A DNA stretch of 60,053 nucleotides, the filler included, from Candidatus Babelota bacterium (GTDB taxonomy: Bacteria; JAGOBX01), in the NCBI GenBank assembly GCA_017999075.1. It is 7 parts of 7 records of this genome, joined end to end, with 100 filler letters (N's around TTAATTAATTAA, not from the genome) between each part and the next. Parts side by side here need not be neighbours in the genome. Positions count along the whole stretch, not along the records: positions 1 to 8,606 come from JAGOBX010000131.1; 6 more parts are not named here. One strand, given 5' to 3'. Positions within the stretch are counted from its first letter, which is position 1. Each line of letters starts with the position of its first letter. Below, one piece after another: positions 914 through 51,718 of this stretch. The translations under genes were made by a program, and so were the position numbers. The notes under the pieces are model-generated. The model was not told where the DNA came from, did not search any database, and saw nothing but the letters and a program-made list of their open reading frames with translations.

Positions 914-1007
914 GTCATATATCTCGGAGTCTGCGCTCGCCGCTGCGCGGCGGCCTTGCGGTCAGACTGCTGCGCAGTCCGACGCAGACTCCTGTCCGAT
1001 AACCGAT
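914..1007 (+). repeat. attC-like site 2
   Basis: GTCATATATC-TC-GGAGTCTGCG-c-TCG...CGA-CGCAGACTCC-TGTCC-GATAACCGAT. Confidence 0.85.
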
Positions 1008-1779: not shown

Positions 1780-1876
1780 ATCGGTTATCTTAGACCTGCC
1801 GTTCGCGCCGCAAGCGTCGCGACCCTACGGGACACCGCGCAAGCGCGGCGTCGGCAGGTCTTATCCGATAACTGCC
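1780..1876 (+). repeat. attC-like site 3
   Basis: ATCGGTTATC-TT-AGACCTGCCG...CGGCAGGTCT-TATCC-GATAACTGCC. Confidence 0.85.
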
Positions 1877-1896
1877 ATTTTTAAAAAGAGAAAAAT

Positions 1897-2781
1897 ATGA
1901 TTATAGATTCACACACTCATTTATTTGATGTATTCACAGGACATAAAATTAAAAAAGGAATAGTTAATTATCCTTTAGGCATAACAATGCTGTTAGAATG
2001 GTTGGGATATAAAAAAGGAAATAATAATAAAACTCCGAATAAAATCATTCGATATTTAGCATTATATGATAATTTAAAACGTTCCCAATGCGGAACAATA
2101 GAAAATTTAGTTTTTTATATGTCTGAAAATAAAATTCAAAAATCATTAGTTTGGGCGATTGAACCATTTGTGAAAACAAAAGGACTAATTGAAATATATA
2201 AAGATAATAATAATTTATTGCCAATAGCCTCAATTAACTTATTTAATAATCCTGATATTGATATTGTTAATGAATTTAAAAAAAATATTTCGGATAAAGT
2301 ATTTGGATTAAAGATACATCCAATAATTCAAAATATTCATCCGGCATCCGAAATATTTTTAAATGTTTTAGAAGAATATGCAATTTATAAAAAACCTGTT
2401 TTTTTACACACCGGGTCAAGCTCGGTTGTATTTAGAGAATATAATAATTATGAATATGGTTCAATATATAATTTTGAAAAAGCGGTTAAAACATTTCCGA
2501 ATATTCAATTTATATTTGGACATATGGGTAATAATACGCCTTTGGAGGCAATTGATTTAGCAAAAAAATATTCTAATATAATTCTCGAAACAAGTTATCA
2601 AAACAATAAAATAATCAAAATTGCTATAGATAATATAGGTATTGAACGAATAATATTTGGCTCTGATTTTCCGTATTCAAGACAATATTATGCTTTGAAA
2701 GAAATTTTTAAATTAAAAATTTCTTACGATAATTTAGAAAAAATATTATTTAAAAATATAAAAAGAATTATTAACATTTAA
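1897..2781 (+). CDS. amidohydrolase family (Amidohydro_2) metal-dependent hydrolase
   Basis: IIDSHTH, GLKIHP, FLHTG, FGHMG and IIFGSDFPY motifs. Confidence 0.85.
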   Translation: MIIDSHTHLFDVFTGHKIKKGIVNYPLGITMLLEWLGYKKGNNNKTPNKIIRYLALYDNLKRSQCGTIENLVFYMSENKIQKSLVWAIEPFVKTKGLIEIYKDNNNLLPIASINLFNNPDIDIVNEFKKNISDKVFGLKIHPIIQNIHPASEIFLNVLEEYAIYKKPVFLHTGSSSVVFREYNNYEYGSIYNFEKAVKTFPNIQFIFGHMGNNTPLEAIDLAKKYSNIILETSYQNNKIIKIAIDNIGIERIIFGSDFPYSRQYYALKEIFKLKISYDNLEKILFKNIKRIINI

Positions 2782-2782
2782 A

Positions 2783-3664
2783 ATGAAAAAAATTGTAATA
2801 TTGACATTTGAAAGTTTGGGTTCTGGATATTTAATTTATCATATTATGAATAGTAAATATCAGAAATATATTGATCAAATAATTATTAGTAAAAAATCAA
2901 AGCCGTTAAATTATGTATTTGCATATTTACAAAAATTTCATTTTAAAATTTTCATTTTAAAAATATTCGAATTTTTTTCTTTTAAAATTTTCAATTTATT
3001 GTATTTAGTTACAAAAAAAAAAATAGGAATTCCAAGTATAAAACAAATGTGTAAAGAAAATAATATTTTTTTTTGTTATGAAAATAATATTAATTCTAAG
3101 TTTAATATAAATATATTTCAGACAAAAAAAGAAACAGTTTATTTGTCTATTTATTTTGATCAAATTATTAAGAAGGAATTATTGCAAAGTATGGGCGGAA
3201 ATTGTTATAATATACACCCCGCATTGTTGCCTAATTATGGAGGACCAATTCCGACTTTTTGGATGTTATTTAATAAAGAAAGTGAATGTGGAATTACATT
3301 ACATAAAATTGATACGAATATTGATGAAGGGATAATTTATTATCAACAGAAATTTAAAATAACTCCAAATGATAGTGTTCAATCTCTTTATTTAAAATCT
3401 ACATGTAAAGCAACGAATATTTTGTATAAATTTTTAGACGATATACTTTCATCACAAAATGAAATTAAATCAATTGAAAACGAATATAAGAAATCATATT
3501 ATACATTCCCATTGAAAGATATGAATATAAATCATATTAAATTATTATCATGGAAATATTTTTTTTCATGGGTAAAGAATTTTAAAAACGGCAGTTATCT
3601 TGACCTTTTACCTCGCACCGCAAGCGGTGCGGCGGCTTTGCCGTCATCGCTTCGCGACGAGTAA
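2783..3664 (+). CDS. formyltransferase family protein (Fmt/ArnA-N-like)
   Basis: NIHPALLPNYGGPIP, GITLHKID and IDEGII motifs; the C-terminus runs into site 4. Confidence 0.85.
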   Translation: MKKIVILTFESLGSGYLIYHIMNSKYQKYIDQIIISKKSKPLNYVFAYLQKFHFKIFILKIFEFFSFKIFNLLYLVTKKKIGIPSIKQMCKENNIFFCYENNINSKFNINIFQTKKETVYLSIYFDQIIKKELLQSMGGNCYNIHPALLPNYGGPIPTFWMLFNKESECGITLHKIDTNIDEGIIYYQQKFKITPNDSVQSLYLKSTCKATNILYKFLDDILSSQNEIKSIENEYKKSYYTFPLKDMNINHIKLLSWKYFFSWVKNFKNGSYLDLLPRTASGAAALPSSLRDE

Positions 3665-3693
3665 AAGGTCTATCCGATAGACGCAATGCAATC
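3590..3693 (+). repeat. attC-like site 4
   Basis: GGCAGTTATC-TT-GACCTTTTAC-c-TCG...CGA-GTAAAAGGTC-TATCC-GATAGACGCAATGCAATC. Confidence 0.85.
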
Positions 3694-3779
3694 TCAACGA
3701 AAGCGGCTACGATTTTCTTTAAAACTCGCAACTAAAACTATTGACAAATAAAGCACTTACAATATTTTTTGAAAAATCC

Positions 3780-3808
3780 CTAAAGTTTTTTTGAGATTCA
3801 GACGATAT
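3780..3808 (+). promoter_or_regulatory. sigma28/SigD (FliA) promoter
   Basis: CTAAAGTTT...GACGATAT (TAAA-N16-GACGATAT) upstream of a flagellin gene. Confidence 0.65.
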
Positions 3809-3903
3809 ATAAGACAGTTTGTGAAATTTATATTGAGGTGATTATAGAAATAATCATTTAATTAAAATCTAATTCGACTTAAAAATGTCGATACATAATT
3901 AAA

Positions 3904-4085
3904 CCTTGAGTTGAAAACTGGCACTTTTCTAAAGTCCAAGGTAAAACACACGCTTCCGAATTTAAGTTCGGGGCGTAAGCTTTTACGCTTTGGACTTCGG
4001 TATGCCAGTACCTCAACTCAGGGCGTTGAGTTTACGCCCTTTGCACTTTCAGAAAACAACTCAAAAAAAATAGCGTAAATTCAAC
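3904..4085 (+). other. structured 5' leader (long hairpin 3904-4023 plus hairpin 4025-4085)
   Basis: nested complementary segments CCTTGAGTTGA/TCAACTCAGGG, ACTGGCA/TGCCAGT, AAGTCCAA/TTGGACTT, GTAAAA/TTTTAC and GTTGAGTTTACGC/GCGTAAATTCAAC. Confidence 0.55.
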
Positions 4086-4096
4086 ATTTAAAATAA

Positions 4097-4108
4097 CTCA
4101 AGGATGAG
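4097..4108 (+). promoter_or_regulatory. CsrA-type binding hairpin overlapping the RBS
   Basis: CTCA-AGGA-TGAG places GGA in a hairpin loop next to the GAGGTG Shine-Dalgarno of the flagellin. Confidence 0.6.
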
Positions 4109-4119
4109 GTGATTTTTAA

Positions 4120-5763
4120 ATGGATTTGATGAGCGCTATAACTAATTCACTCGCAAACGGCGCATACAGAATGATGAACTTGCAACGAGACCAAATGTTG
4201 CAACATCAGAACAAAATATCTTCAGGAAAACGGATAAATTCAGCATCCGATGATGCTGCCGGACTTGCAATATCTAAAAAATTTGAAACACAAACAAGAG
4301 GGCTTCAACAAGCTAACAGAAATGTTCAAGACGGAATTTCTATGTTGCAAACATTAGAAGGCGGTCTTGGTGGAATACACGATATATTACAACGAATGAG
4401 AAGTCTTGCAGTTCAATCAGCAAATGATACATTAACAAATGAAGACAGAAACTTAATTCAATTAGAAATAAACGAATTGATTAAAGAAATCGACAGAAAA
4501 CAAACAAGTTGTGAATTTAATACAATCAAGTTATTAAAAGGAGTTTTCAATAATCCTAAATTAGGCGAATGGAATCAAATAACACAATTGAATGGTTCTT
4601 CTATAGCAGGTTTTGATGTTAGCACTGACGGAAAACTAATTACTTTTTCTTCAAATAAGGATGACGGAATAACAAGCAAATTATATGTAATGAATTCTGA
4701 CGGAAGTAATATTAAAAAATTAACCGATTTTCCGTCATATATGTCAAAATTTACTCCAGATAATGAAAACATAACATTTACAGGTATTCCACCAGGCGAA
4801 ACTCTTCGTGAAGCTATGATGATTAGTGTTGACGGAAATAATTTAACAAACCTTTCAAATACTCCGCTTTCGGCAGAATCTTATTCTCAAGTATCTCCTG
4901 ACGGAAATACTGTTATTTGGTCTCAAAGCGGAAATTTAATTAAATCTGATTTTCCTGACTTAAACCCATCTGCAACAGGTAATGTAATTGGCAATTGGTT
5001 TAATTATTTTCCGTCAGGTGATAAAATAATCTATCATCGCAACGTCGTCACAAGTTGGGAAATATTTATTGCTGATTTAGAAGGAAATGTTTTACAACAA
5101 GTTACTAATAATTCCCTTTCTGATTTAGTCTACGGAAATGGAATTTCACCAGATGAAAGTAAAATTGTTTTTTCAAGGCATTCGTCTAATAGTTCTACCG
5201 ATGATACAGGCGAATTATATATGATGAATATTGACGGCAGTGAGTTAACTCGATTAACAGATAATAATTCATTTGAAGGATTGAGTCAATTATCCGAAGA
5301 CGGAAAAAAACTTTACTTTGTTTCGAATAAAACAGGTGCTCAAGAAATTTATACTGCCGAAATGGAATATGACGGTTTATTCTTACATGCTGGCGCAAAT
5401 ATGAATCAAACTATTGAATTAAAACTTGACAATATGAGTTCATACGCACTAGGAATTCGTGGATTATCCGTTGAAACTCAAACTCAATCAGAAGCAGCAT
5501 TAGGACTAATGGATAATGCTATAAATAAAGTTTCCGCATATAGAGCAAAAATTGGAGCTCTTCAAAATCGCCTTGAACATACTTTTAATTATAACGGAGC
5601 AGCCGAAGAAAATCAGACATCTGCCAAATCACGAATCGAAGATGCAGACATTGCTCGTGAAATGATTGAATACACAAAACGAGATATGCTCGATAAAATT
5701 TCAATGTCAATGCTTTCACAAGCAAACTTAAAGCAAAAAAATATTTTAAATTTATTTCAGTAG
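4120..5763 (+). CDS. fliC: flagellin with TolB-like (PD40) beta-propeller in the variable region
   Basis: Flagellin_N (SSGKRINSASDDAAGLAI, LQRMRSLAVQSANDT) and Flagellin_C (RAKIGALQNRLEH, SRIEDADIAREM); the centre has repeated SPDG/STDGK...I.FSS...LY.MN.DGS blades. Confidence 0.9.
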   Translation: MDLMSAITNSLANGAYRMMNLQRDQMLQHQNKISSGKRINSASDDAAGLAISKKFETQTRGLQQANRNVQDGISMLQTLEGGLGGIHDILQRMRSLAVQSANDTLTNEDRNLIQLEINELIKEIDRKQTSCEFNTIKLLKGVFNNPKLGEWNQITQLNGSSIAGFDVSTDGKLITFSSNKDDGITSKLYVMNSDGSNIKKLTDFPSYMSKFTPDNENITFTGIPPGETLREAMMISVDGNNLTNLSNTPLSAESYSQVSPDGNTVIWSQSGNLIKSDFPDLNPSATGNVIGNWFNYFPSGDKIIYHRNVVTSWEIFIADLEGNVLQQVTNNSLSDLVYGNGISPDESKIVFSRHSSNSSTDDTGELYMMNIDGSELTRLTDNNSFEGLSQLSEDGKKLYFVSNKTGAQEIYTAEMEYDGLFLHAGANMNQTIELKLDNMSSYALGIRGLSVETQTQSEAALGLMDNAINKVSAYRAKIGALQNRLEHTFNYNGAAEENQTSAKSRIEDADIAREMIEYTKRDMLDKISMSMLSQANLKQKNILNLFQ

Positions 5764-5775
5764 GAGAATTTTTAA

Positions 5776-6348
5776 ATGGGTGATTATAATCAGTGGTATA
5801 ATTTCACATATGAAGGAATATTTTCTTTAGCGTCATGGGATAATTTCAATGAAGATATTGAAAAAAAAATTATATGTCTTTTTTCATGGATGCCCTGTGC
5901 TATAATGAATATTACTCATTCAGGAAAAGGAAAAAATCGAATCACAAAAGCTCAAGTATATAACATTGAAAATTGTAAAGAAAAAATTTTATCTGTCAAA
6001 TCAATCGCTGAATCATTTAAAAATATAAAATTGGTAGATATCGACATTAAAAATAAAAAAATAAAACAAAATATTCTTGATTTAAGTAAACCACTTGTCG
6101 AAATATTTGGAACAGTAGGAGCAAGTAAATTTTTACATTTTAGTTTTCCATTTTTTTTTATTATGTGGGATCGAAAAATAAGAAATCATTATAAATTAAA
6201 AGACAATGAAATAGGTTATTATAATTATTTATTGAATGCAAAAGAAGCATTAAATAATTCCGATATTTTAAATATAGCAAAAAATAAATTTCCTAATAAC
6301 ATTCTGCGTGGTTTAGATATATACAGAATGGAAACTATTCGAGATTAA
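5776..6348 (+). CDS. hypothetical protein
   Basis: 190-aa ORF with AGGAG RBS directly after the flagellin; GASKFLHFSFP..FIMWD motif. Confidence 0.7.
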   Translation: MGDYNQWYNFTYEGIFSLASWDNFNEDIEKKIICLFSWMPCAIMNITHSGKGKNRITKAQVYNIENCKEKILSVKSIAESFKNIKLVDIDIKNKKIKQNILDLSKPLVEIFGTVGASKFLHFSFPFFFIMWDRKIRNHYKLKDNEIGYYNYLLNAKEALNNSDILNIAKNKFPNNILRGLDIYRMETIRD

Positions 6349-6376
6349 AATTATTTTATCCACATATAATAATGCC

Positions 6377-6489
6377 GATTGCACTGCGTCTATCATAGTC
6401 CTATACCTCGTGCTTCGCACGGCTGCTGCGCAGTCATTTTGCCTTCGGCAAAACGAGTATAGGACATTACCGTTATCCGCAAAAAGCGC
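6377..6489 (+). repeat. attC-like site 5 (right core GTTA)
   Basis: GATTGCACTGCGTCTATC-AT-AGTCCTATAC-c-TCG...CGA-GTATAGGACA-TTACC-GTTATCCGC. Confidence 0.85.
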
Positions 6490-6570
6490 AGAGAGAAAAT
6501 TCATTTGCTTAATTATTTATTTTGATATATTATGTAATCATTTATAAAATGAAATGTGGAGAACTAACTA

Positions 6571-7734
6571 ATGTTTAAAGAAATTCTATTAACTTATGAT
6601 AGTAATTTAACAAAAAATGAAATAATGTCAATAAATATTTTCAATAATTCATTTGATGAAAGTGATATTAAATTGGAATATAATTGTAATAAAATTATTG
6701 TTTTGTTACGTGAAGTTGACTTGGATAATTTGAAACGTGTATCTCAAGGTTTATTAAAATGTTCAGAAAAACCAATTTTTTCGGATATTATTACTCGTAT
6801 TGAAGCTATTAAAAGTTATGGCATCAATGGGAAAAAAAGAAATTATATTGATTACAATAAAGAACGGAAAGTAAAAAATCGAACAGAAAAAGAAGAAAAG
6901 CGAGGACAATATTATTATACAAAAGGTAATGATTTTTCAAAAATAAATAATGACTTACCTAATGAATTTATTGATAAAATTATATCAGAAGATAGCGAAA
7001 TTTTTTTGAAAAAATTGCCAGATAATTCTATTGATTTGGTTTTTACTTCTCCGCCGTATAATTTTGGATTGGAATATGAAAAAAATGCGGATGATCATTA
7101 TTGGGATGATTATTTTAATAAATTATATAAAGTTTTTGAACAGTGTATTAGAGTATTAAAATATGGCGGCAGAATTATTGTAAATATTCAACCTCTTTTT
7201 TCAGATTATATTCCGAGTCATCACATAATAAGTAATTATTTCATCCAAAAAAAATTGATTTGGAAAGGAGAAATTTTATGGGAAAAAAATAATTATAATT
7301 GTAAATATACAGCTTGGGGAAGTTGGAAAAGTCCAAGTAATCCATATTTAAAATATACATGGGAATTTCTTGAAATATTCTCAAAAGGGAGTTTAAAAAA
7401 AGAGGGAAAATCTGGAAATATAGACATTATTGCAGATGAATTTAAACAATGGGTTGTTGCTAAATGGTCTATAGCTCCTGAAAGAGATATGAAAAAATTC
7501 AACCACCCTGCTATGTTCCCAGAAAAATTAGTTGAAAGAGTTATTAAACTTTTTAGTTATAAAAATGATGTTATTCTTGACCCTTTTAATGGAGTAGGAA
7601 CAACAACATTAGTTGCTAAAAAAAATGAGAGAAAATTTATTGGTATTGATATTTCTAACGAGTATTGTTCTACCGCGTTAAAAAGATTAGAAAATTTAAA
7701 AATAGAACAGGGGTTGTTTGCAAATGAATTATGA
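6571..7734 (+). CDS. site-specific DNA methyltransferase (N4/N6, beta class)
   Basis: FTSPPYN motif IV precedes HPAMFPEKL and ILDPFNGVGTT (motif I). Confidence 0.9.
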   Translation: MFKEILLTYDSNLTKNEIMSINIFNNSFDESDIKLEYNCNKIIVLLREVDLDNLKRVSQGLLKCSEKPIFSDIITRIEAIKSYGINGKKRNYIDYNKERKVKNRTEKEEKRGQYYYTKGNDFSKINNDLPNEFIDKIISEDSEIFLKKLPDNSIDLVFTSPPYNFGLEYEKNADDHYWDDYFNKLYKVFEQCIRVLKYGGRIIVNIQPLFSDYIPSHHIISNYFIQKKLIWKGEILWEKNNYNCKYTAWGSWKSPSNPYLKYTWEFLEIFSKGSLKKEGKSGNIDIIADEFKQWVVAKWSIAPERDMKKFNHPAMFPEKLVERVIKLFSYKNDVILDPFNGVGTTTLVAKKNERKFIGIDISNEYCSTALKRLENLKIEQGLFANEL

Positions 7735-8428
7735 AAAAATAAATGAATTAGTTAAAACTTATGAATCTGTTGTAAAAGTTGTCGATAAAAAAGCATCCGA
7801 AGAAGAACATCGAGCTTATGGTGGCGTTGTTCGAAGTGTCAAAGGTTGGTTGCAAGAACATTTAACAGAAGAAATAATAAAAATTGCTTGGGAAAATGTA
7901 GGTGGAAATAATTCAAGAATTGAAATTAATTCTCAAAAACAAATGATACCAATTAAAAAAGATTATATCATCAAAATTCAAGATGAAGAAATTAAAAATT
8001 TTATATTAGAAAATATTACAGATTATTTTTATGGATTGAGTGTGGATAAACAAATTTTTATTGATAATAATTTTGTTATTGGAATAGAATGTAAAGCATA
8101 TACGGAAAATGCGATGATAAAAAGAATCCTTGTTGATTTCAGTTTATTGAAAACAATTTTTCCGCAATTACAGTGTTATCTATTTCAGTTAGAAAGTCAA
8201 CTCGGTGGAGATTATTCAGAATTAAAGAAAATTACTTTTGGCAGCACGTCGACACATACTTTGATGTCATATTTTCCAGATGTTAGTTTAAATATTTTTA
8301 CTTTTTTGAAAGGTGAAAGAAAGGTTGATAAACCAATTCATAAATATGAACATTTCAAACCTATCGAAAAAGATAAATTAATAGAAGCAGTTGAATTAAT
8401 ATCAGAAGATATAAAAAGATTTTTATAA
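7724..8428 (+). CDS. putative type II restriction endonuclease
   Basis: overlaps the MTase; VDKQIF...GIECKAY resembles a PD-(D/E)xK motif. Confidence 0.7.
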   Translation: MNYEKINELVKTYESVVKVVDKKASEEEHRAYGGVVRSVKGWLQEHLTEEIIKIAWENVGGNNSRIEINSQKQMIPIKKDYIIKIQDEEIKNFILENITDYFYGLSVDKQIFIDNNFVIGIECKAYTENAMIKRILVDFSLLKTIFPQLQCYLFQLESQLGGDYSELKKITFGSTSTHTLMSYFPDVSLNIFTFLKGERKVDKPIHKYEHFKPIEKDKLIEAVELISEDIKRFL

Positions 8429-8433
8429 ACAGA

Positions 8434-8537
8434 GCGCTTTCAGCGGATAACTTGTGCTTTTACCTCACGCCTTCGGCGTGGCCGCTTCGCGGTCAGCGCT
8501 TCGCGCCGAGTAAAAGCACGGTTCGATAAATGCCATC
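8434..8537 (+). repeat. attC-like site 6 (left core TAAC)
   Basis: GCGCTTTCAGCGGATAAC-TT-GTGCTTTTAC-c...CGA-GTAAAAGCAC-GGTTC-GATAAATGCC. Confidence 0.85.
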
Positions 8538-8559: not shown

Positions 8560-8607
8560 ATGTTAACAGAAAAACAGATTGAAGATGTATTTGAACAATA
8601 TTATGAN
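8560..8607 (+). CDS. start of next cassette ORF (partial, MLTEKQIEDVFEQYY...)
   Basis: GAGGTG RBS then ATG after site 6; cut by the contig end. Confidence 0.55.
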
Positions 8608-8706
8608 NNNNNNNNNNNNNNNNNNNNNNNNNNNNNNNNNNNNNNNNNNNTTAATTAATTAANNNNNNNNNNNNNNNNNNNNNNNNNNNNNNNNNNNNNN
8701 NNNNNN

Positions 8707-9785
8707 ATCATAACTCTGCTTACACTTTGAAGAACATCAACGCATGGGTAATGATTTTTATGGGCAAGTTCACGGGATAATACAATATGTCCGTCAAGAA
8801 TTCCCCTAACAGAATCTGCTATAGGTTCGTTCATATCATCACCGTCAACAAGTATCGTGTATAATCCTGTAATAGTTCCGTTTTCTCCTGCTCCTGAGCG
8901 TTCCAGCATCATCGGCAGCAAAGAAAATACAGAAGGAGTATATCCCCGGGTTGCCGGAGGTTCGCCAATAGCCAAACCTATCTGACGTTGGGCATGAGCA
9001 AATCTTGTTACAGAATCCATCATAAGCATAACATTTAAACCTTTATCCCGGAAATATTCAGCTATAGTATGAGCTGCAAATGCACCGCGCAAACGCATTA
9101 AAGGAGGTTGATCTGATGTTGCAATAACAACTATGCTGCGTTTAAGGCCTTCTTCACCAAGTTCTTTTTCAATAAACTCCCTAACCTCCCTTCCACGTTC
9201 TCCTATCAATGCAATCACATTAACGTCTGCAGAAGCATATCTTGCTATCATTCCCATCATAGTACTTTTTCCGACTCCGCTTCCTGAAAAAACTCCCATT
9301 CTCTGTCCTTTACCAAATGTCATAATTCCGTCTATTGCCGATATTCCAAGAGATAATGGTTCTGTTATACGTTTTCTTGTTAAGGGATCAGGTGCAGACG
9401 AATAAATACTTCTGATTTCTTCAGGTATCACCGGATTTTTACCATCAGCCGGTTCGCCCATACCATTCAAGATTCTGCCGCGTAAACTATCTGATAACAT
9501 TATTTGAAGAGGATGACCTGCGGCTACTACTTCATCACCCTGACTTATACCTGCCATATCTCCTATAGGCATAAGCAATACTTTATTATTTTTGAATCCA
9601 ACAGCTTCTGCAAGTTTACACTCGTTACTGTCTTTCGGATATATGTAACACAATTCACCGATTTTACAAGACGGTCCTGACGATTCTATTACAATACCTA
9701 CAACATTAGCTATTTTTCCGCTTTTCTTTATGGAAGGTTTTAAATTTATTATTTGTTTAAATTTATCAGACAAAGAGTTTGACAT
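8707..9785 (-). CDS. fliI: flagellar export ATPase FliI (3' truncated by gap)
   Basis: GQRMGVFSGSGVGKS, ALIGERGREVREF and GEPPATRGYTPSVF. Confidence 0.95.
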
Positions 9786-9863: not shown

Positions 9864-10688
9864 CTATAATTCTTCTATTGTTTGTTTCAAACTTTCAAAC
9901 AGACTTTCACATTTAATTTTTAATGTAGAATCGAAATTTCCTTTATCTGTTTCCAGAATACAACTTATATCATCCATATTCTGTGAACCGACTACTTTCA
10001 ATTTTTCAAGAGAAGTAACTTCACCAGCAACTACATTTTTCATATTTTTAATTTTTTCAACATTCGACTGGCTGACTTTTATAACTAATTCTTTAGCATC
10101 GCCTATTTCAGATAATAAATCTGTCAAATTTTTTATTAAAATATCTTCCTTATAAACTTCAATTTCTTTTGAAATAATATGATTAACAAAAGTCTTAACT
10201 ATTTCAAAAATTTCATCTTTCAAATTAAGAATTTTTTCTTTTTTTTCTTTAGTAATTGTATCTATTATTGAATTCAAAAGCAATAATTTATCTTTAGTTT
10301 CATTTTTGAATTCAGTTATTGCTTGTTTATATCCTTCATCATAGCCACGTTGAAATCCGGTTTGTTTCTGGATTTCAATTTGCTGTTTAGAGGATTCTAT
10401 AATCTCAATTTTCTGTTGTTCCCCTTCTTTAAGCAAATTAATTTTTTTTTGTTCGATTTCAATAAGAGCCTGTTGCTCCAATTTAACAAGCTCTTTCTTC
10501 TTCTCTTCTATAAGTTCATTTATTTCTGAAAGTTTTTGTTCGGCAAGCTTTGTTTCATCAACTTTAAGTTTATCGTCTTCAGATTCTTTTATAAAAATAT
10601 TTTCTCCGTCAAAATTTGTGCCTATAATAAAATTGCGCGGGTTTACAGTTATATTAAGTGATTTATAAATCCCTGTGTCCTGAGTCAT
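9864..10688 (-). CDS. fliH: flagellar assembly protein FliH
   Basis: GFQRGYDEGYKQA GxxxG repeats; lies between fliG and fliI. Confidence 0.8.
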   Translation of the reverse strand: MTQDTGIYKSLNITVNPRNFIIGTNFDGENIFIKESEDDKLKVDETKLAEQKLSEINELIEEKKKELVKLEQQALIEIEQKKINLLKEGEQQKIEIIESSKQQIEIQKQTGFQRGYDEGYKQAITEFKNETKDKLLLLNSIIDTITKEKKEKILNLKDEIFEIVKTFVNHIISKEIEVYKEDILIKNLTDLLSEIGDAKELVIKVSQSNVEKIKNMKNVVAGEVTSLEKLKVVGSQNMDDISCILETDKGNFDSTLKIKCESLFESLKQTIEEL

Positions 10689-11707
10689 TATACTACTAAT
10701 TCTTCTTCACCTCCGCGTGCGATTATAATGTCTCCGGATTCTTCAAGACGTCTTATAACATTAACTATACGCTGTTGAGCTTCTTCAACATCGCGCATAC
10801 GCACAGGTCCCATAAATTCCATATCTTCTTCAAGCATTGCAGACGCGCGTTTTGACATATTGCCGAATATTTTCTGTTTAACAGTCTCGTCAACAGCTTT
10901 CAAAGCAACTGCAAGTTCTTTTGTATCAACTTCACGCAAAACCTGCTGAATTGACCTGTCATCAAGTAAAACAATATCTTCAAATACAAACATAAGTTTC
11001 TTTATTTCTTCAGCGAGTTCAGGTTCTTCTTCCTCAAGATTTTCAAGTATGCTCTTTTCAGTACCGCGGTCCACTTTATTCAATATATCAACTATAGCCT
11101 GCACTCCACCTGCAATCGTATATTCTTCGCTGACAAGAGATGATAATTTCTTTTCAAGAACCCTTTCAACCTGCCTTAATATTTCCGGAGAAGTTCTGTC
11201 CATTGTTGCAATTCTTTTAGCAACGTCAGCCTGTATCTCTACATTCAGCTGAGGAAGTATCGCTGCCGCAGTATCAGGATCAAGATAAGATAAAATCAAG
11301 GAAATAGTCTGAGGATGTTCACCTTGTATAAAATTCAAAACATGTGAAGGATCAGCTTTTCTTACAAAATCAAATGGTTTTACCTGGATACTCTGAGTCA
11401 ACCTGTTTATTATATCCATAGAACGCTGTGTTCCCAAAGCTTTCTCTAAAACCTGACGGGCATAATCAAGCCCGCCTTGAGTTATAAAATCATTAGCCAT
11501 CAGCATTTCATGAAATTCCTGAACAACTGAATCCTTGTCAGACGGCTCAACCTTTTCAAGTTTTGCTATCTCCAAAGTCAATTCTTCAATTTCTTTATCC
11601 GTTAAATGTTTGAATATATTTGACGATATGTCAGCGCCAAGCGTTACTAAAAAAATCGCTGCTTTTTGTTTTCCCGTCAACTTATCACCTTGCTGGTTTG
11701 ACGCCAT
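10688..11707 (-). CDS. fliG: flagellar motor switch protein FliG
   Basis: LTGKQKAAIFL, GGLDYA, EHPQTI, MFVFEDI and GPVRMRDVEEAQ. Confidence 0.97.
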   Translation of the reverse strand: MASNQQGDKLTGKQKAAIFLVTLGADISSNIFKHLTDKEIEELTLEIAKLEKVEPSDKDSVVQEFHEMLMANDFITQGGLDYARQVLEKALGTQRSMDIINRLTQSIQVKPFDFVRKADPSHVLNFIQGEHPQTISLILSYLDPDTAAAILPQLNVEIQADVAKRIATMDRTSPEILRQVERVLEKKLSSLVSEEYTIAGGVQAIVDILNKVDRGTEKSILENLEEEEPELAEEIKKLMFVFEDIVLLDDRSIQQVLREVDTKELAVALKAVDETVKQKIFGNMSKRASAMLEEDMEFMGPVRMRDVEEAQQRIVNVIRRLEESGDIIIARGGEEELVV

Positions 11708-11738: not shown

Positions 11739-13364
11739 TTATCTGTTTTCAAACAACCAAGTACGCAATAGCGCAGCCACCATTTCAGGTTTCTTCTGAG
11801 CCATATCCTGCGCATGTTTCAATAATTCAAGTTTTTCGCGTTCTTCAGGAGTTAATTCCGAATCCGCTATCAGCCTTGAACCAAGCGCCTGATCCTGTGT
11901 GGCAAGTTCGCGTTTACGCAACAATTCTTCTTTACGAAGCTTCCATCTTTTATGCATTTCAAACAGAAATATGAAAATTATTACAAGACAAACTATACTT
12001 AACACTGTAATTTTAAACATTCTTTCTTTTTGAAGTTTTGATTTTATAAGTTTATCTTCATACTCAAATTCCGCTGTACGGTCGAATTGCAATTCTACTA
12101 CTTTAACACTGTCGTTTCGGTCAGGATTATATCCTATTGCGCTTTTAACCCCTTCTTCAAGACTTTTTAATAATTCAGGAGTCAAGTGTTTATAAGTTCT
12201 TTTTATCTTCTCAGTCGGTTTAGATGGTTCAGTATATTCCCATATCCCGTCAACCATCAAAGATGCCGAAACTCTTTTAATTGTCGGATTTCTTACTATT
12301 GATTTTTCAAGTTTATTAGGTTCATAATTTATACGATTTTCTTTCTTTTCATATTTTATCGGTCCATTTTCAGCGCTTTTATATACAGGTATATTATCTG
12401 TTACTCCAGGTTTTCCGCCTTCTTTAAAGCCTATCCCTTCAAATTTTTCGTCAAGAGTTTCTTCGCTGCGTTTAATAGGATCAAATCCGGGATTTGAAAA
12501 TTCCGTTGACTTAGCCTCTTCCTTATCAAAATTATATTCAATAGTAACTTCAGCTGTAATTCTTCTGTGACTTAATATTTTCCCAAGTGCATTTATTATT
12601 TTGTTTTTTAATTTTTTCTCTTCACGTTCTTTTATTTTATTCTGCATATCAACTTTGGTTTCACTTTCTATCTCTTTATCTTCAATTTCATCGTTTAAAC
12701 TCTCGCCTGTAGCAGAATCAACAAGCATTATATTTTCAGATTTACAATTTGGTATATAATAAGATGCAAGGTTTATAATCCCTTTAATCTGTTTTTTTTC
12801 AAGTTTTTCATAAGGTTTAAGTTCTATTGTTATTGATGCTTTAGAAGATTCTTCCATAGAAGAAAACAGCGGTCTGTCCGGCAAAGATATCGCAACAACT
12901 GCAGATTTTATCGGACCTAAACCCTGAATCATACGGGTTAAAGCTCCTTCAGTCGCGATTTTAAAATGAATTTTCTTTTCGTATTCAGTAAGTCCGCGCG
13001 GCAAATCTTTAAATATTTCAAATCCTGTTATATTACTTTTAGGAAGTTTGTTCTCTGATCCTAATTTTAATAAAATATCATTTTTCCTTTCAGAAGAAAC
13101 ATATAAATATCCAAGATTAGCGTCATATTTATAATTTTCACGCCAATCATCAAGAGATTTTTTTACTTGACCCGCGTCTTCTATTGATAACTTATGGTCA
13201 AATAACGGCGTAAGCTTCTCACCTGATGTTATAATTGCAGTTATTATAATTGCAGTTAATGCAAGGGCAACAATTGAAATAATTGTAATTTTCTGTTTCT
13301 TAGACAAATTATTCCAAACATTTAGCCCCTGTTCTTTAAATTTATTAAAAAAATCTTTCATCAA
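11739..13364 (-). CDS. fliF: flagellar M-ring protein FliF
   Basis: two TM segments, GFEIF, ATEGALTRMI, KASITIEL and AIGYNPDRNDSV; upstream of fliG. Confidence 0.92.
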   Translation of the reverse strand: MMKDFFNKFKEQGLNVWNNLSKKQKITIISIVALALTAIIITAIITSGEKLTPLFDHKLSIEDAGQVKKSLDDWRENYKYDANLGYLYVSSERKNDILLKLGSENKLPKSNITGFEIFKDLPRGLTEYEKKIHFKIATEGALTRMIQGLGPIKSAVVAISLPDRPLFSSMEESSKASITIELKPYEKLEKKQIKGIINLASYYIPNCKSENIMLVDSATGESLNDEIEDKEIESETKVDMQNKIKEREEKKLKNKIINALGKILSHRRITAEVTIEYNFDKEEAKSTEFSNPGFDPIKRSEETLDEKFEGIGFKEGGKPGVTDNIPVYKSAENGPIKYEKKENRINYEPNKLEKSIVRNPTIKRVSASLMVDGIWEYTEPSKPTEKIKRTYKHLTPELLKSLEEGVKSAIGYNPDRNDSVKVVELQFDRTAEFEYEDKLIKSKLQKERMFKITVLSIVCLVIIFIFLFEMHKRWKLRKEELLRKRELATQDQALGSRLIADSELTPEEREKLELLKHAQDMAQKKPEMVAALLRTWLFENR

Positions 13365-17284: not shown

Positions 17285-17383
17285 NNNNNNNNNNNNNNNN
17301 NNNNNNNNNNNNNNNNNNNNNNNNNNNNTTAATTAATTAANNNNNNNNNNNNNNNNNNNNNNNNNNNNNNNNNNNNNNNNNNN

Positions 17384-17542
17384 NGCTATAAGTAATACGT
17401 CAGGAGGTATAGGAAAAAAAGAAGATTCCGCAAAAGACATTAAAATCAAAACCAAATTTCCATATTGAGTGTTGGCCCAGTGTAATGTCCAATTATAAAT
17501 ATATTTTACAGGTTTATTTATAAAATTCATAATTTTTTTCAT
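17384..17542 (-). CDS. YqaA/DedA family membrane protein (partial)
   Basis: SFAESSFFPIPPDVLLI motif. Confidence 0.8.
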
Positions 17543-25954: not shown

Positions 25955-26053
25955 NNNNNNNNNNNNNNNNNNNNNNNNNNNNNNNNNNNNNNNNNNNNTT
26001 AATTAATTAANNNNNNNNNNNNNNNNNNNNNNNNNNNNNNNNNNNNNNNNNNN

Positions 26054-26767
26054 NGCTTTACCTGTTTTTTTTATTGATTTAAGTATGGTATTTTTATCAA
26101 TGGGTTTTATTGTAGAAATATTTATCAATTCTGCCGAAATGCCTTTTTGTTTTAATAATTTAACGGATTGCATAGCGGAGTTCAATATGTACCCTGAAGA
26201 AATAATGGTTATATCAGAACCTTTCGAAATAATTTCCGATTTTCCGATTTTAAATTTTAAATTTAAATTTTTATGTATTGAAGGTTCGCCTGCAATTCCC
26301 AGTCTGAGATAAGCAGGTCCTTTAAAATTTACTAATTCCGATATCGTGCATTTAGTTTCAGCGGGATCAGATGGAGAAATCACTGTCATATTTGGCAAAG
26401 ACCGCATTAAAGCTATATCTTCAATAGAATGATGCGTTGGCCCAAGTAGACTGTATGAAACTCCGCCGCCCACGCCTATTATTTTAACATTAGTTTTTTG
26501 AATACACACATCTACCCTTATCTGTTCAAAGTTGCGCATTAAAACAAATGGAATTATTGTGTAACAGAACGGGATGAATCCGTTTAAAGCAAGTCCGGCA
26601 GCTACTCCTATCATATTAGCTTCGGAAACGCCTACATTAATAAATCTTTCAGGACATTCTTTTCTGAAATCGTCGAAAACTATTGCTCCGATATCAGCGG
26701 ATAACAGTATTATTTTTGAATTTTTAAATGCTTCGATTTTAAATTGTTCTATAAACGCGTTACGCAT
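26054..26767 (-). CDS. transketolase, pyrimidine-binding/C-terminal subunit (3' truncated)
   Basis: RFINVGVSEANMIGVAAG, EQIRVDVC and GPTHHSIED. Confidence 0.88.
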
Positions 26768-34571: not shown

Positions 34572-34719
34572 NNNNNNNNNNNNNNNNNNNNNNNNNNNNN
34601 NNNNNNNNNNNNNNNTTAATTAATTAANNNNNNNNNNNNNNNNNNNNNNNNNNNNNNNNNNNNNNNNNNNNCTTACACAGTGCTATTCTAATGACGATGG
34701 TCAAAAAATATTTGATATG

Positions 34720-43140: not shown

Positions 43141-43581
43141 NNNNNNNNNNNNNNNNNNNNNNNNNNNNNNNNNNNNNNNNNNNNTTAATTAATTAANNNN
43201 NNNNNNNNNNNNNNNNNNNNNNNNNNNNNNNNNNNNNNNNTTCTTTATTAAGAAAATAAATTAATCAATGCAGCGCAGATGTTTGTAAAAATAATTTACA
43301 TAATACTGCGCTGCTTTATTAAATAACAAAAATTGAAAATTTCTTGCCAATAAGTTTTATATTTTATTATCTTATAAAAGATATTAAAAAATATAACTTT
43401 TACTTTATCCTTAATTCACAAACCCGCATATCTGGTAATTCGACAATTACAGTAACACTGCGTTAAGATATTATTTGATTATACAGGAAAAATATTGTTA
43501 ATATGAACAATATTTTGCAACCAATCTTCTTTAAGTTAGTATAACTAAACAAGAGTAATTAAATTTTTAGGAGGCGACAAT

Positions 43582-45545: not shown

Positions 45546-45567
45546 AAATGACAATGATTTAAATAGC

Positions 45568-45662
45568 ATGGCGGCTATATAGACACAGCCGTCGGCGGCT
45601 GAAAGCCGCTGACTGAAAGCCGAGCCGCTTGCGGCTCGAGCGGCTGTGTCAAGATAACGGAA
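45568..45662 (-). repeat. attC-like site 7, right core degenerate
   Basis: minus strand TTCCGTTATC-TT-GACACAGCCG-c-TCG...CGA-CGGCTGTGTC-TAT[CCG missing]ATAGCC. Confidence 0.8.
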
Positions 45663-46710
45663 GTTTTTTTTCTTCAAAACTTAAAATCTTATCAATTAGT
45701 GTAACTACTTCATCTAAAATATTCGAATTTATTTTTAATTCAGAATTCTTATATTCCAAAAATGTAATAAAATACTTGTCTTCGTTAAATGACAATTTAT
45801 GTTTATTGGAAAGTTCTATTTTATCAATATATGGTAAGTTAGGAAGTGTTAAATAGGCAAATTCGCCATAAACATTGAATATGAAAGATAAATCTTCAAA
45901 TGCTTTCTTTTGTATATAGCAATAATAAGATGCGCCAGCAGCTCGCCAAGCAATAAAATTTTCTCTCTTTTTTATTTCTGATATAAATGAATACATAAAA
46001 TTAATTCTATTTCGGTCGCGGGCATATTTACTGCTTTTTATTTCTTCTCTTTTATTAGCAATATCATCTCGAATGTTAGGTGGGGGTAAAATTTGCTCAA
46101 ATCCAATCTGATAACTTTTACTATCAACCGGAAAAACTTGATATCTCCAACATTCTATTAGATAGGTCAAACTCTCTGAAGAATTATTTAAAAAATCAAC
46201 AATTGATAATGCGTTTGCAGTAAAATTTTCTCCAACAAGTACAATAATTTGAAATTCATTTACCTTTATTTCTTCTGATTGTTTTCCTAAAGTTATGTGG
46301 TCATTGATTTTTTGTTTTGCTTCATCAGCAGAATTTAATTTAATATTTTGTATATGCCCTTTCTGATAGTGAGTAAAAAACAATTGTGATATATCATTTA
46401 AATCTTTATTATAGTATTCTGAAGCATAACCTAATGCTTGTAATAATGCACCTTCATTTACAATACCTTGTTTTAATTCACAGATTACTAAATCTCCTTC
46501 ATTATCAATTCCGATCAAGTCTGACCGTTGCTCACTATTTAAAGAATCTTGCCTTGTTATCCATAAAATATTTTTTTCAAAAATATCTTTTTCGTTATTG
46601 ATTATCCATGTTTCTAAATGTTGCGGTTCATTAAACCCCTGCGAGCTTAATGAGGCACTATTAATTTTTAGAAGTTTGCGATTTTCTGTATCAATTTTAA
46701 ATAATTGCAT
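45649..46710 (-). CDS. NucS-like PD-(D/E)xK endonuclease domain protein (cassette ORF)
   Basis: EPQHLETWI, RSDLIGIDNEGDLVICELK and QALGYAS; GGAGG RBS; stop codon inside site 7. Confidence 0.75.
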   Translation of the reverse strand: MQLFKIDTENRKLLKINSASLSSQGFNEPQHLETWIINNEKDIFEKNILWITRQDSLNSEQRSDLIGIDNEGDLVICELKQGIVNEGALLQALGYASEYYNKDLNDISQLFFTHYQKGHIQNIKLNSADEAKQKINDHITLGKQSEEIKVNEFQIIVLVGENFTANALSIVDFLNNSSESLTYLIECWRYQVFPVDSKSYQIGFEQILPPPNIRDDIANKREEIKSSKYARDRNRINFMYSFISEIKKRENFIAWRAAGASYYCYIQKKAFEDLSFIFNVYGEFAYLTLPNLPYIDKIELSNKHKLSFNEDKYFITFLEYKNSELKINSNILDEVVTLIDKILSFEEKKLPLS

Positions 46711-47060
46711 GCTTTCCTCCAAAAAAAAATTTCTGCTATCTCGTATTTACGCGCAGTTACTGCTCTTTTTATGTTAAATCAGCAATAAATTAGAAGTTGA
46801 CTGCGTGTAAATCACCATCAGCCGAAAGCCATTCCAAACTATCAACTAATAATGTATTTTTAATACAATAATATTTCATAAAAATCAATTTGAAAGATCA
46901 TTTGCCAAACTTTTTATTTTTACTATTTCCTGCGTTGACACAAAAATACATCAACCAATCATAAACTTGTTCAACGCAGAATAAAAGTTCAGCAGTTAAC
47001 CGATTTAATAATTATACGCAAATTGTTTAAAAAAGTTGCAAAATATTTAATGTTTTTTAT

Positions 47061-51618: not shown

Positions 51619-51718
51619 NNNNNNNNNNNNNNNNNNNNNNNNNNNNNNNNNNNNNNNNNNNNTTAATTAATTAANNNNNNNNNNNNNNNNNNNNNNNNNN
51701 NNNNNNNNNNNNNNNNNN

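Follow-up and report, generated by a model that had tools for sequence, protein, structure and literature searches.

Here we describe a 60,053-nucleotide (nt) stretch of DNA from Candidatus Babelota bacterium (assembly GCA_017999075.1), referred to as the window, in which six attC-type recombination sites very probably separate the gene cassettes of an integron-like array, one of them at positions 914–1007. As read from their sequences, the sites appear to be a variant of attC with a distinct, conserved geometry. The window is composed of seven contigs of ~8.3–8.6 kb each, placed in decreasing order and joined by N44-TTAATTAATTAA-N44 linkers. The cassette array spans the whole first contig (1–8606, ~25% G+C), on which six GC-rich islands each lie 3′ of an open reading frame (ORF) on the + strand.

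Anatomy of the six array sites

The region 914–1007 comprises site S2 with part of its flanks. The six sites are as follows.

Site S1: 98–176, + (top) strand, the − strand probably being the folded, recombinogenic one; defined by covariance model R1 (60.8 bits) and folding
Site S2: 920–1001, + strand, from the TAWC box to the GWTA box
Site S3: 1786–1870, + strand; defined by layout, folding and R1
Site S4: 3596–3679, + strand; defined by layout, folding and R1
Site S5: 6391–6475, + strand; its right box GTTA matches TAAC of S6
Site S6: 8448–8528, + strand; the last before the contig ends at 8606

Measured box to box, all six sites consist of TAWC, a 2-nt spacer, a 10-nt arm, a 44–50-nt core, another 10-nt arm, a 5-nt spacer and GWTA, which is the layout proposed in the initial annotation. 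The left spacer is TT in four sites, TC in one and AT in one, and the right spacer is TATCC in three sites, with TGTCC, TTACC and GGTTC in one each. The arms are the six listed in that annotation, complementary at 10/10 positions in five sites and at 9/10 in S5. The single unpaired base noted 3′ of the left arm is likewise found at its place as one pyrimidine (T in S1 and S3, C in the other four).

When the six sequences are parsed on the + strand, the rest of the core is taken up by hairpins A, B and C without any further unpaired base, making a four-way junction. The three hairpins of the initial annotation are present, but the conserved TCG and CGA written around them there form no closing helix and belong to hairpins A and C. 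TCR is the first three bases of hairpin A (TCG in 5/6, TCA in S6), and CGW is the last three bases of hairpin C (CGA in 4/6, CGT in S1 and S3). TAAC is found in 1/6 left boxes and GTTA in 1/6 right boxes, the remainder being TATC and GATA. The pattern of boxes and core ends has 3 matches in the window, with 0.00 expected by chance. Site S2 is resolved into the following parts, with helices numbered as in the covariation alignment.

906–923, + strand: extended R′′ half, 18 nt ending in TATC (920–923), pairing with 173–190 after the GATA of S1, with a C·A mismatch at position 11
924–925, + strand: left unpaired spacer, 2 nt, TC
926–935, + strand: left 10-nt arm (L′′ side), pairing with 983–992; helix 2
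936, + strand: single unpaired pyrimidine where the arm meets hairpin A (bottom strand: purine)
937–953, + strand: hairpin A, starting with TCG; helix 5
954–961, + strand: hairpin B, short, 2 bp; helix 4
962–982, + strand: hairpin C (TCA...CGA), stacking on the arm, its third pair A·C on the + strand and G·T on the − strand; helix 3
983–992, + strand: right 10-nt arm (L′ side)
993–997, + strand: right unpaired spacer, 5 nt, TGTCC
998–1015, + strand: R′ box GATA with its extension (GWTANNYGNNA...), which is DNA of the next cassette from W onward

The site family, its cassette ends and its probable folding strand

The same sites occur elsewhere. One genome per species was scanned with the box pattern, and metagenomes were scanned with an arm-specific pattern, which returned 62 contigs. 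The genome scan gave 18 matches, with one true site (10/10 arms) in the unclassified metagenome bin G001; the other 17 are chance matches with arms complementary at 10/10 in none and at ≤5/10 in all bar one AT-rich case of 7/10. In all, 15 unique sites with this same geometry were located in G001, spread over contig C5 and small contigs. When 60 ‘relatives’ of G001, a heterogeneous set of 39–67% GC, were examined, true sites were found in G001, G002 and G060, those of G060 having the family geometry with two-hairpin cores. Sites are present in two of the three genomes from the phylum of G002.

A strict geometric scan of the other genomes and metagenomes yields 151 sites on 70 loci, with 122 unique sequences and 44 distinct left arms. 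Arm pairing in the unique sites is 10/10 in 104, 9/10 in 15 and 8/10 in 3. Against circularity, a box-free search was made for inverted 10-mers matching at 9–10/10 positions around a GC-rich core, and it returned 155 sites. The boxes lie 12–14 nt to the left and 15–17 nt to the right of the junction, the right always being 3 nt longer, in 137/155; among the remaining 18, 11 are uninformative with a box-like tetramer within the arm, and 7 lack a box on at least one side. The unique sites have TAAC in 78 and GTTA in 80, versus TATC in 44 and GATA in 42. The canonical AAC/GTT triplet is thus the family majority, and the window is unusual in favoring ATC/GAT.

What makes these sites parts of cassettes is the complementarity of their flanks. 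At 5/5 window junctions, the 18–20 nt after GWTA are the reverse complement of the 18–20 nt ending in the TAWC of the next site, with one fixed exception at each junction, namely C on the left and A on the right at position 11. This pairing in the window was also detected as inverted repeat I21. Because the flanks match across the cassette, the choice of A or T at W is explained, as the GTTA of S5 goes with the TAAC of S6.

Over the family, the flanks of adjacent sites are complementary at ≥12/18 positions in 65/81 pairs and at 17/18 in 29, when the two flanks of a site itself mostly reach 6–11/18 and random pairs ~8–9. Across the cassettes of the 65 pairs, W is complementary in 65/65, position 8 is C-G in 64/65, and positions 5–7, 9 and 10 covary. 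Within one site, on the other hand, the W pair fails in 54/131 rows.

Each cassette ends (3′) in the left part of a site and begins (5′) with the last R′ bases of the site before it. This is the classical chimeric-site signature of integron cassettes: recombination inside R′ leaves the outer R′ on the downstream cassette, making the array sites chimeras. Instances that share only the inner site or only the downstream cassette bound the exchange point between spacer position 4 and W, which is compatible with the integron position G/W (the slash marks the exchange point or boundary here and below). The bound is not tighter because the 5-nt spacer varies independently of both sides. In S2, the crossover would lie between G998 and A999.

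The sites are imperfect inverted repeats, R′′-L′′...L′-R′, at the 3′ ends of cassette ORFs, and they are co-oriented on 70/70 loci. Median cassette length is 932 bp over 74 distinct cassettes, 71 of which have their longest frame on the top strand. CRISPR-like or tandem repeats were considered and rejected, as the units are 0.6–6 kb apart and differ in sequence.

Base pairing was examined with covariance model R1, which was built on the minus strand from a seed (A3) of nine gap-free metagenome sites. Over 78 sources, R1 gives 177 matches, the best 150 of which form alignment A4 with 135 distinct rows. Covariation, on which the initial annotation had let its structural reading depend, is strong: standard pairs fill 97.7% of the cells in A4 versus 70.2% in column shuffles, and 0/500 shuffles reach the observed value. 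Changes on both sides are found in 29/34 pairs, with 1053 double-change cells versus 294 in shuffles. When partners are slid by 1–3 columns, pairing falls to 25.6–44.3%. The 10-bp arms are uninterrupted, with 98.9% of arm cells paired and compensatory changes in all ten arm pairs. A4 was fitted to the structure of the model, which biases these counts towards it; the arm register, however, is fixed by the boxes and hence independent of that fit.

Both strands were also folded with DNA parameters, as the initial annotation had suggested. All six sites beat their shuffles on both strands, with z-scores of −3.1 to −5.4, and the − strand has the lower folding energy in 6/6. Of the 122 unique sites, 113 are more stable as the − strand, and 102 take up the three-branch fold on it. 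Two positions mark the strand: the third pair of hairpin C is A·C on the + strand and G·T on the − strand in 135/135 rows, and position 11 of the outer stem is C·A on + and G·T on − in 53/65 well-paired junctions. In addition, c-GNA-g triloops make up 211/342 minus-strand loops and 0/309 plus-strand loops. C-G-closed GNA triloops, a typical element of stable DNA hairpins, are exceptionally stable in DNA. Probably, then, folding and recombination involve the minus (bottom) strand, antisense to the cassette genes.

The G·T wobbles, the GNA triloops, the − strand stability and an outer stem formed only across a cassette argue for folded DNA rather than RNA. If the sites were structured RNAs or transcription terminators serving the upstream genes, their stable hairpins 3′ of ORFs and the T-runs ~12–18 nt past the right box would be accounted for. 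However, no Rfam family is found on the sites at gathering score or at E ≤1, no tRNA model matches them, and the terminator scan fits 0/6 whole sites and only an inner hairpin of S5. Moreover, it is the sense (+) strand that has C·A mismatches where the antisense has G·T, the triloops sit on the antisense strand, and for the outer stem to form, both ends of one cassette, 0.6–6 kb apart, must come together. Of all the explanations considered, this one has the slightest chance.

The five cassettes on the array contig are as follows.

Cassette 1: 174–998, + strand; Gp49/HigB-like and helix-turn-helix antitoxin-like genes (239–906)
Cassette 2: 999–1867, + strand; 248-residue ORF with no family match
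Cassette 3: 1868–3676, + strand; Amidohydro_2 and formyl-transferase-like ORFs
Cassette 4: 3677–6472, + strand; long structured leader, flagellin with PD40 beta-propeller insert, and 190-residue ORF
Cassette 5: 6473–8525, + strand; N6/N4 DNA methylase and 236-residue ORF

Cassette 1 carries a strong, near-consensus promoter-like site of its own, TTGACA-17-TATAGT, at 212–240, as is typical of toxin–antitoxin cassettes of chromosomal integrons. The leader of cassette 4 contains a ~120-nt hairpin at 3904–4025 with an RNA fold of −60.1 kcal/mol (z −5.5) and no Rfam match. In the flagellin ORF at 4120–5763, the PD40/beta-propeller insert sits between the N and C helical regions; flagellin is unusual as an integron-type cassette.

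In the 60-kb window, the R1 matches are exactly the six array sites (59–89 bits) and a degenerate seventh.

Seventh site: 45564–45668, − strand; solitary and degenerate, an R1 match on another contig of the window
Linkers: 8607–8706, 17285–17384, 25955–26054, 34572–34671, 43141–43240 and 51619–51718; adjacency across them is not real

The seventh site lies 3′ of a 357-residue ORF without Pfam match (45649–46722, − strand). Its left half, arms and hairpins are intact, and the right box and crossover region are missing, as it reads TATAT/AGCC where the family has TATCC/GATAGCC. It looks like a cassette fixed in place.

Other observations concern family members outside the window. On metagenome contigs L092–L153, the arms and the three hairpins are combined in different ways, like modules that can be swapped; two hairpin C versions, for instance, are each seen among three types of arm. 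This points to exchange inside the sites or to a limited repertoire of allowed modules. On contig C5 of G001 (L046), an island (8119–8213, 9623–9710, 9888–9959 and 11035–11200) lies beside a putative membrane-transporter ORF. An R1 match just 3′ of this ORF, a hybrid site in inverted orientation with non-matching arms and two hairpins only, and a putative MazF-like ORF followed by a regular site are found there. A ~90-nt direct repeat beginning with GATAAACGAA is on both sides. The island may be a decayed or rearranged array end.

Candidate recombinases and array heads

In two other genomes, arrays of this family start behind an IntI/Xer-like recombinase gene. In G002, contig C50 encodes a recombinase with Phage_int_SAM_4 and Phage_integrase domains, its gene being split over two frames at an A-run. 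At ~230 nt downstream of the stop codon, GATAACTGCCATATCAATT pairs with the flank to the left of the first site (C·A at position 11), and the array is therefore placed as starting there, on the same strand. The catalytic half of this protein scores 167 bits on the integron-integrase model (two stretches; cut-off 265) and 165 bits on the XerA model.

A homologue with 42.5% identity is on contig C33 of G042 (55% G+C), where a cassette starts ~160 nt after its stop. The sites of this array are TAAC, TT, a 10-nt arm, two hairpins, a 10-nt arm, TGGTC and GTTA; they keep the C8-G8 and C11·A11 marks and score 27–36 bits with R1. One site of this array (7639–7771 of the same contig, L156) has an N run inside a duplicated hairpin, probably an artefact of assembly or masking within a repeat. 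In both G002 and G042, the recombinase is co-oriented with the cassettes.

Further heads have the same order of parts. In G031 and at two G101 loci, homologues are followed by attI-like regions with palindromes, a ...GAACGA/GTTA... boundary and cassettes, which show the cassette signature and the sites of which have short left and long right spacers (1–3 versus 4–6 nt). In G052, G067 and G089, the boundary motif is present after the recombinase before the contig ends. Intact recombinases of this group include a 370-residue protein on G052:C163 and a 398-residue protein on G101:C55. A homologue in G003, alone among housekeeping genes, was set aside as uninformative.

The attI-like regions of L154, L155, L172, L180 and L181, 100–230 nt past the recombinase stop, contain two imperfect palindromes, e.g. 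TATATCCGCAGTACTGCGGATATA. The palindromes resemble a duplex version of the extended R stem, and GAACGA/GTTA-type boundaries come next. Beside a canonical, divergently oriented IntI, L088 (G037:C27) reads ...CAATAACGA/GTTAGGC... at ~12700–12850. This resembles the boundary motif after the insertion-less recombinases and hints at a shared attI logic.

The array-head proteins lack ~40 residues of the IntI-specific region in alignment A2, whereas these are present in the canonical IntIs of G018 and G010. On TIGR02249 they score 167.4, 225.5, 231.2 and 189.4 bits, each in two stretches and below the cut-off of 265. Their best solved relatives are XerA (5hxy, 155.7 bits) and IntI4 (2a3v, 155.6 bits in two stretches). 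In a 29-row tree, Xer (100/100) and IntI (100/100) are separate clades, recombinases linked to IS91 go weakly with IntI (80/55), and the array-head proteins form an unresolved grade between the Xer and IntI clades. Two short pseudogene pieces were dropped from this tree, which has small sampling and an arbitrary root and gives no order of events. An IntI above the curated TIGR02249 cut-off is found in none of the 3 genomes of the G002 phylum. Canonical IntI is found in 8/60 genomes searched, and crude finders detected no clear arrays at the canonical IntI loci of the G001 ‘relatives’.

We put at about even the chance that the cognate enzyme of the window array is not canonical IntI but a member of this related clade without the IntI-specific insertion, which heads arrays in two other genomes.

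Recombination would proceed as follows. Folding would take place on the bottom strand of the cassette, whether the cassette is in the array or circular. The ends of a circularized cassette, being complementary, would form the R stem (10 bp, then the C·A mismatch that is G·T on the − strand, then ~7 bp); inward of it are an asymmetric internal loop (2 nt left, 5 right), the 10-bp L stem, the unpaired base and the junction of three mini-hairpins, or two in some relatives. The R and L stems, with the 5/2 spacer between them, would act as a pseudo-duplex core site to which two subunits of a tyrosine recombinase bind. The R-stem subunit would cut the bottom strand at TAW/C, which is G/W of GWTA on the top strand. 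W could be free to be A or T because it would be on the non-exchanged side of the cleavage. One strand would then be exchanged with a second folded site for excision or with duplex attI for integration, and replication would resolve the junction, as in integrons. The correct strand would be told apart by the three extra bases of the R′-L′ spacer and by the L′′-side branch that bears hairpins A and B, which would take the role of the extrahelical bases in canonical attC.

Somewhat more tentatively, and a little short of even confidence, we propose a second, unrecognized class of integron. Its integrase would be an IntI relative without the additional domain, co-oriented with the cassettes and placed between the Xer and IntI clades in the small tree. 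It would read bottom-strand sites by the 5/2 spacer, the mini-hairpin branch and two fixed G·T wobbles. Arrays of this class would be scored as CALINs (integrase-less attC clusters) or missed by current tools, and the clade could be ancestral to IntI.

Several points weigh against the reading set out here and the proposed enzyme. First, the folding, the choice of strand and the cleavage position are all computed or inferred, and all site-bearing genomes are fragmented metagenome bins. Second, tblastn with three recombinase queries gives no match in the whole window, hence none on the array contig; the recombinase at the G002 array head is frameshifted; and G001, with its 15 sites, is without a close homologue of the array-head recombinase among assembled contigs. 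Third, G060 has sites of the family geometry together with a canonical IntI fragment of 303 bits. This fragment has an internal stop and a degraded N-terminus and is on a different contig from the sites, and no site of the family was found on the contig of the fragment.

Fourth, the same recombinase group is found in IS91-type elements of G010, G033, G135 and contig L119, four group members being directly upstream of IS91-type transposase genes. The array-head members, in contrast, have no IS91 transposase downstream but an attI-like region and cassettes instead. Fifth, few recombinases without the IntI region are near attC sites according to the relevant excerpt of Cury et al. (PMC4889954), where they are judged not to be IntI. 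Four recombinases intermediate between IntI and Xer that are dismissed there may overlap with the array-head clade. An excerpt of Smyshlyaev et al. (bioRxiv 10.1101/542381) places the closest IntI homologues, which lack the insertion, in IS91 and IS3 elements.

On metagenome contig L119, positions 1–1139 hold a recombinase gene with an in-frame TAA and then a gene with a Zn_Tnp_IS91 domain, 150 nt from a family site (1280–1388). The left box of this site is altered to CAAC. Arrays of this kind may be targets, or places of origin, of IS91-type elements with IntI-like recombinases.

In another view, the sites are ordinary attC sites of a sedentary chromosomal integron, their unusual spacers and junction being part of natural attC variability, with a canonical IntI elsewhere in the unassembled genome and with the insertion-less recombinases near arrays being incidental, e.g. 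IS91 remnants. The overall plan, the cassette signature, the bottom-strand bias and the predominance of AAC/GTT boxes in the family all agree with it, as do the IntI fragment of G060, the canonical IntI in 8/60 genomes, and the IS91-linked group members, one of them beside a family site. Branched, variable terminal structures are also known in chromosomal integrons, as part of PMC5027507 describes.

However, the 2-nt spacer and an L stem without extrahelical base depart from the canon and are kept in 137/155 sites. No IntI reaches the cut-off in the 3 genomes of the G002 phylum, and the IntI of G060 is broken and on a contig other than that of the array. Furthermore, the two heads of the exact site family (G002 and G042) adjoin a co-oriented insertion-less recombinase with the first boundary 160–230 nt past its stop, and three further heads with related sites (G031 and the two of G101) have the same arrangement. 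As to the enzyme, the chief competitor is a canonical IntI encoded at another place in the genome; we regard the view of ordinary attC sites as unlikely, though not to be dismissed lightly.

Two explanations dispense with tyrosine recombination of folded cassette ends and have very little probability. The first takes the sites as ends or targets of HUH single-strand transposition (REP/RAYT, IS200/IS605 or IS91 type) rather than substrates of a tyrosine recombinase. GC-rich intergenic hairpins with strand-specific structure would suit this, and an IS91-type transposase gene is on one site-bearing contig, L119. However, Pfam finds no HUH transposase family in the nine array ORFs scanned, and the sites are regularly spaced 3′ of co-oriented ORFs. 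A fixed crossover, with the R′ remainder traveling with the next unit, indicates reciprocal site-specific recombination and not peel-and-paste or rolling-circle transfer. The element on L119, beside a site with an altered box, looks like an insertion next to an array.

In the second, which is equally improbable, the sites are double-stranded dif-like (Xer) sites that bound modules like pdif and recombine as duplex, making the hairpins irrelevant. The TAWC/GWTA boxes do form an inverted repeat, the candidate recombinases are Xer-like by the XerA and IntI4 scores above, and palindromes akin to duplex core sites are in the attI-like regions. But 34 base pairs covary over ~80 nt including three hairpins, which a duplex site would not need, and the strand asymmetry in wobbles, GNA loops and spacers of 2 versus 5 nt would be meaningless in a duplex. 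Finally, pdif modules are bounded by inversely oriented sites, whereas all sites of an array are co-oriented here.

If the proposed second class is real, it bears on what integron recombination requires. The tenets are that recognition of attC rests on structure, with extrahelical bases, a symmetric spacer of unpaired bases and the AAC triplet as its marks, and that it needs the IntI-specific domain. A well-populated family of 151 sites keeps the cassette logic and swaps those marks for others, and five array heads are behind an integrase relative without the IntI domain, two with the exact family (G002 and G042) and three with related sites (G031 and two G101 loci). This would permit a direct test of which structural features are truly required for single-strand recombination, could explain part of the many ‘integrase-less’ cassette clusters, and could bear on how integrons arose. 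The arrays serve as gene banks of an AT-rich, almost unsampled bacterial phylum (3 genomes), with toxin–antitoxin, restriction-modification-like and even flagellin genes.

Comparison with known integron and recombinase systems

A full-text literature search, which did not cover supplementary files, returned no description of the present geometry or of arrays headed by insertion-less IntI relatives. The array-head proteins share with IntI (TIGR02249; VchIntIA, PDB 2a3v) two domains, the catalytic motifs and an SPLD-type C-terminus. They differ in lacking the ~40-residue insertion, in falling below the TIGR02249 cut-off and in being co-oriented with the cassettes. Unlike in complete integrons, no intI with the IntI-specific domain adjoins the array in the window, G002 or G042. 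With six co-oriented cassette sites and no integrase gene on the contig, the window array is like a CALIN (PMC4889954), although CALINs are defined by matches to the attC model of IntegronFinder and the present sites are likened by layout, not by that model.

As insertion-less close relatives of IntI, the array-head proteins also resemble the ‘integron-like’ simple tyrosine recombinases, including those of IS91 elements, in the part of Smyshlyaev et al. (bioRxiv 10.1101/542381) concerned with them. The IS91-element recombinases differ in preceding a transposase gene, where array-head members precede an attI-like region and cassettes. In the sections of PMC5027507 used here, XerCD, with folded single-stranded phage DNA as substrate, is the only other case of tyrosine recombinases that use single- as well as double-stranded substrates. 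Here a Xer-type enzyme recombines a folded single strand without having the IntI insertion, which makes it a precedent, but its site, compared by description, is for phage integration and not in cassette arrays.

The closest likeness is to attC sites themselves (59-base elements such as attCaadA7 and the Vibrio cholerae repeats, substrates of IntI). The canonical geometry was taken from the published description (PMC5027507) and not measured on arrays here. In the portions of that description drawn on, attC recombines as a bottom-strand hairpin that is cut between A and C of AAC, with R′ and R′′ being RYYYAAC and GTTRRRY. The unpaired central spacer usually has 5–6 bases per arm, an extrahelical G is within L′′ (position 16) with a conserved T 6 bp further, and the terminal structure ranges from 3 nt up to complex branched forms, as in chromosomal integrons.

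The present sites are imperfect palindromes at cassette 3′ ends in the same way, and keep the plan R′′-spacer-L′′-variable center-L′-spacer-R′ with a possibly branched center. Their R-box crossover would be G/WT for the G/TT of attC, the R′ remainder belongs to the next cassette, and the bottom strand is favored by computation. Like those of integrons, the cassettes are co-oriented and mostly promoterless, and include toxin–antitoxin modules.

The differences are in the recognition marks. The spacers have 2 nt on the L′′-R′′ arm and 5 nt on the R′-L′ arm, versus 5–6 on both in attC. The L stem is an uninterrupted 10 bp without the extrahelical G and without the T 6 bp further; instead, a single unpaired purine (− strand) sits on the L′′ side at the point where the stem ends inward and hairpins A and B branch off. 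The R stem extends over ~18 bp, in which C-G at position 8 and a wobble at 11 are conserved, and either A or T stands in the middle of the ‘invariant’ triplet. Along the R′-L′ arm, the branch point would by calculation coincide with the distal extrahelical T of attCaadA7, which serves as a lead only.

The initial annotation had supposed structure-specific recognition of folded single-stranded DNA with a geometry different from that of IntI and attC. The first half agrees with an element of the folded single-strand type, as indicated by covariation, G·T wobbles, GNA triloops and − strand stability. The second half holds in that the departure from published attC spacing is kept in 137/155 sites, which cannot be remapped cleanly onto canonical R′′-L′′-L′-R′ spacing, but not in that the attC plan, the integron cassette signature and an AAC/GTT majority are retained. 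Because of this shared plan, signature and mostly AAC/GTT boxes, we regard the six sites as a probable variant of attC rather than a different kind of site.

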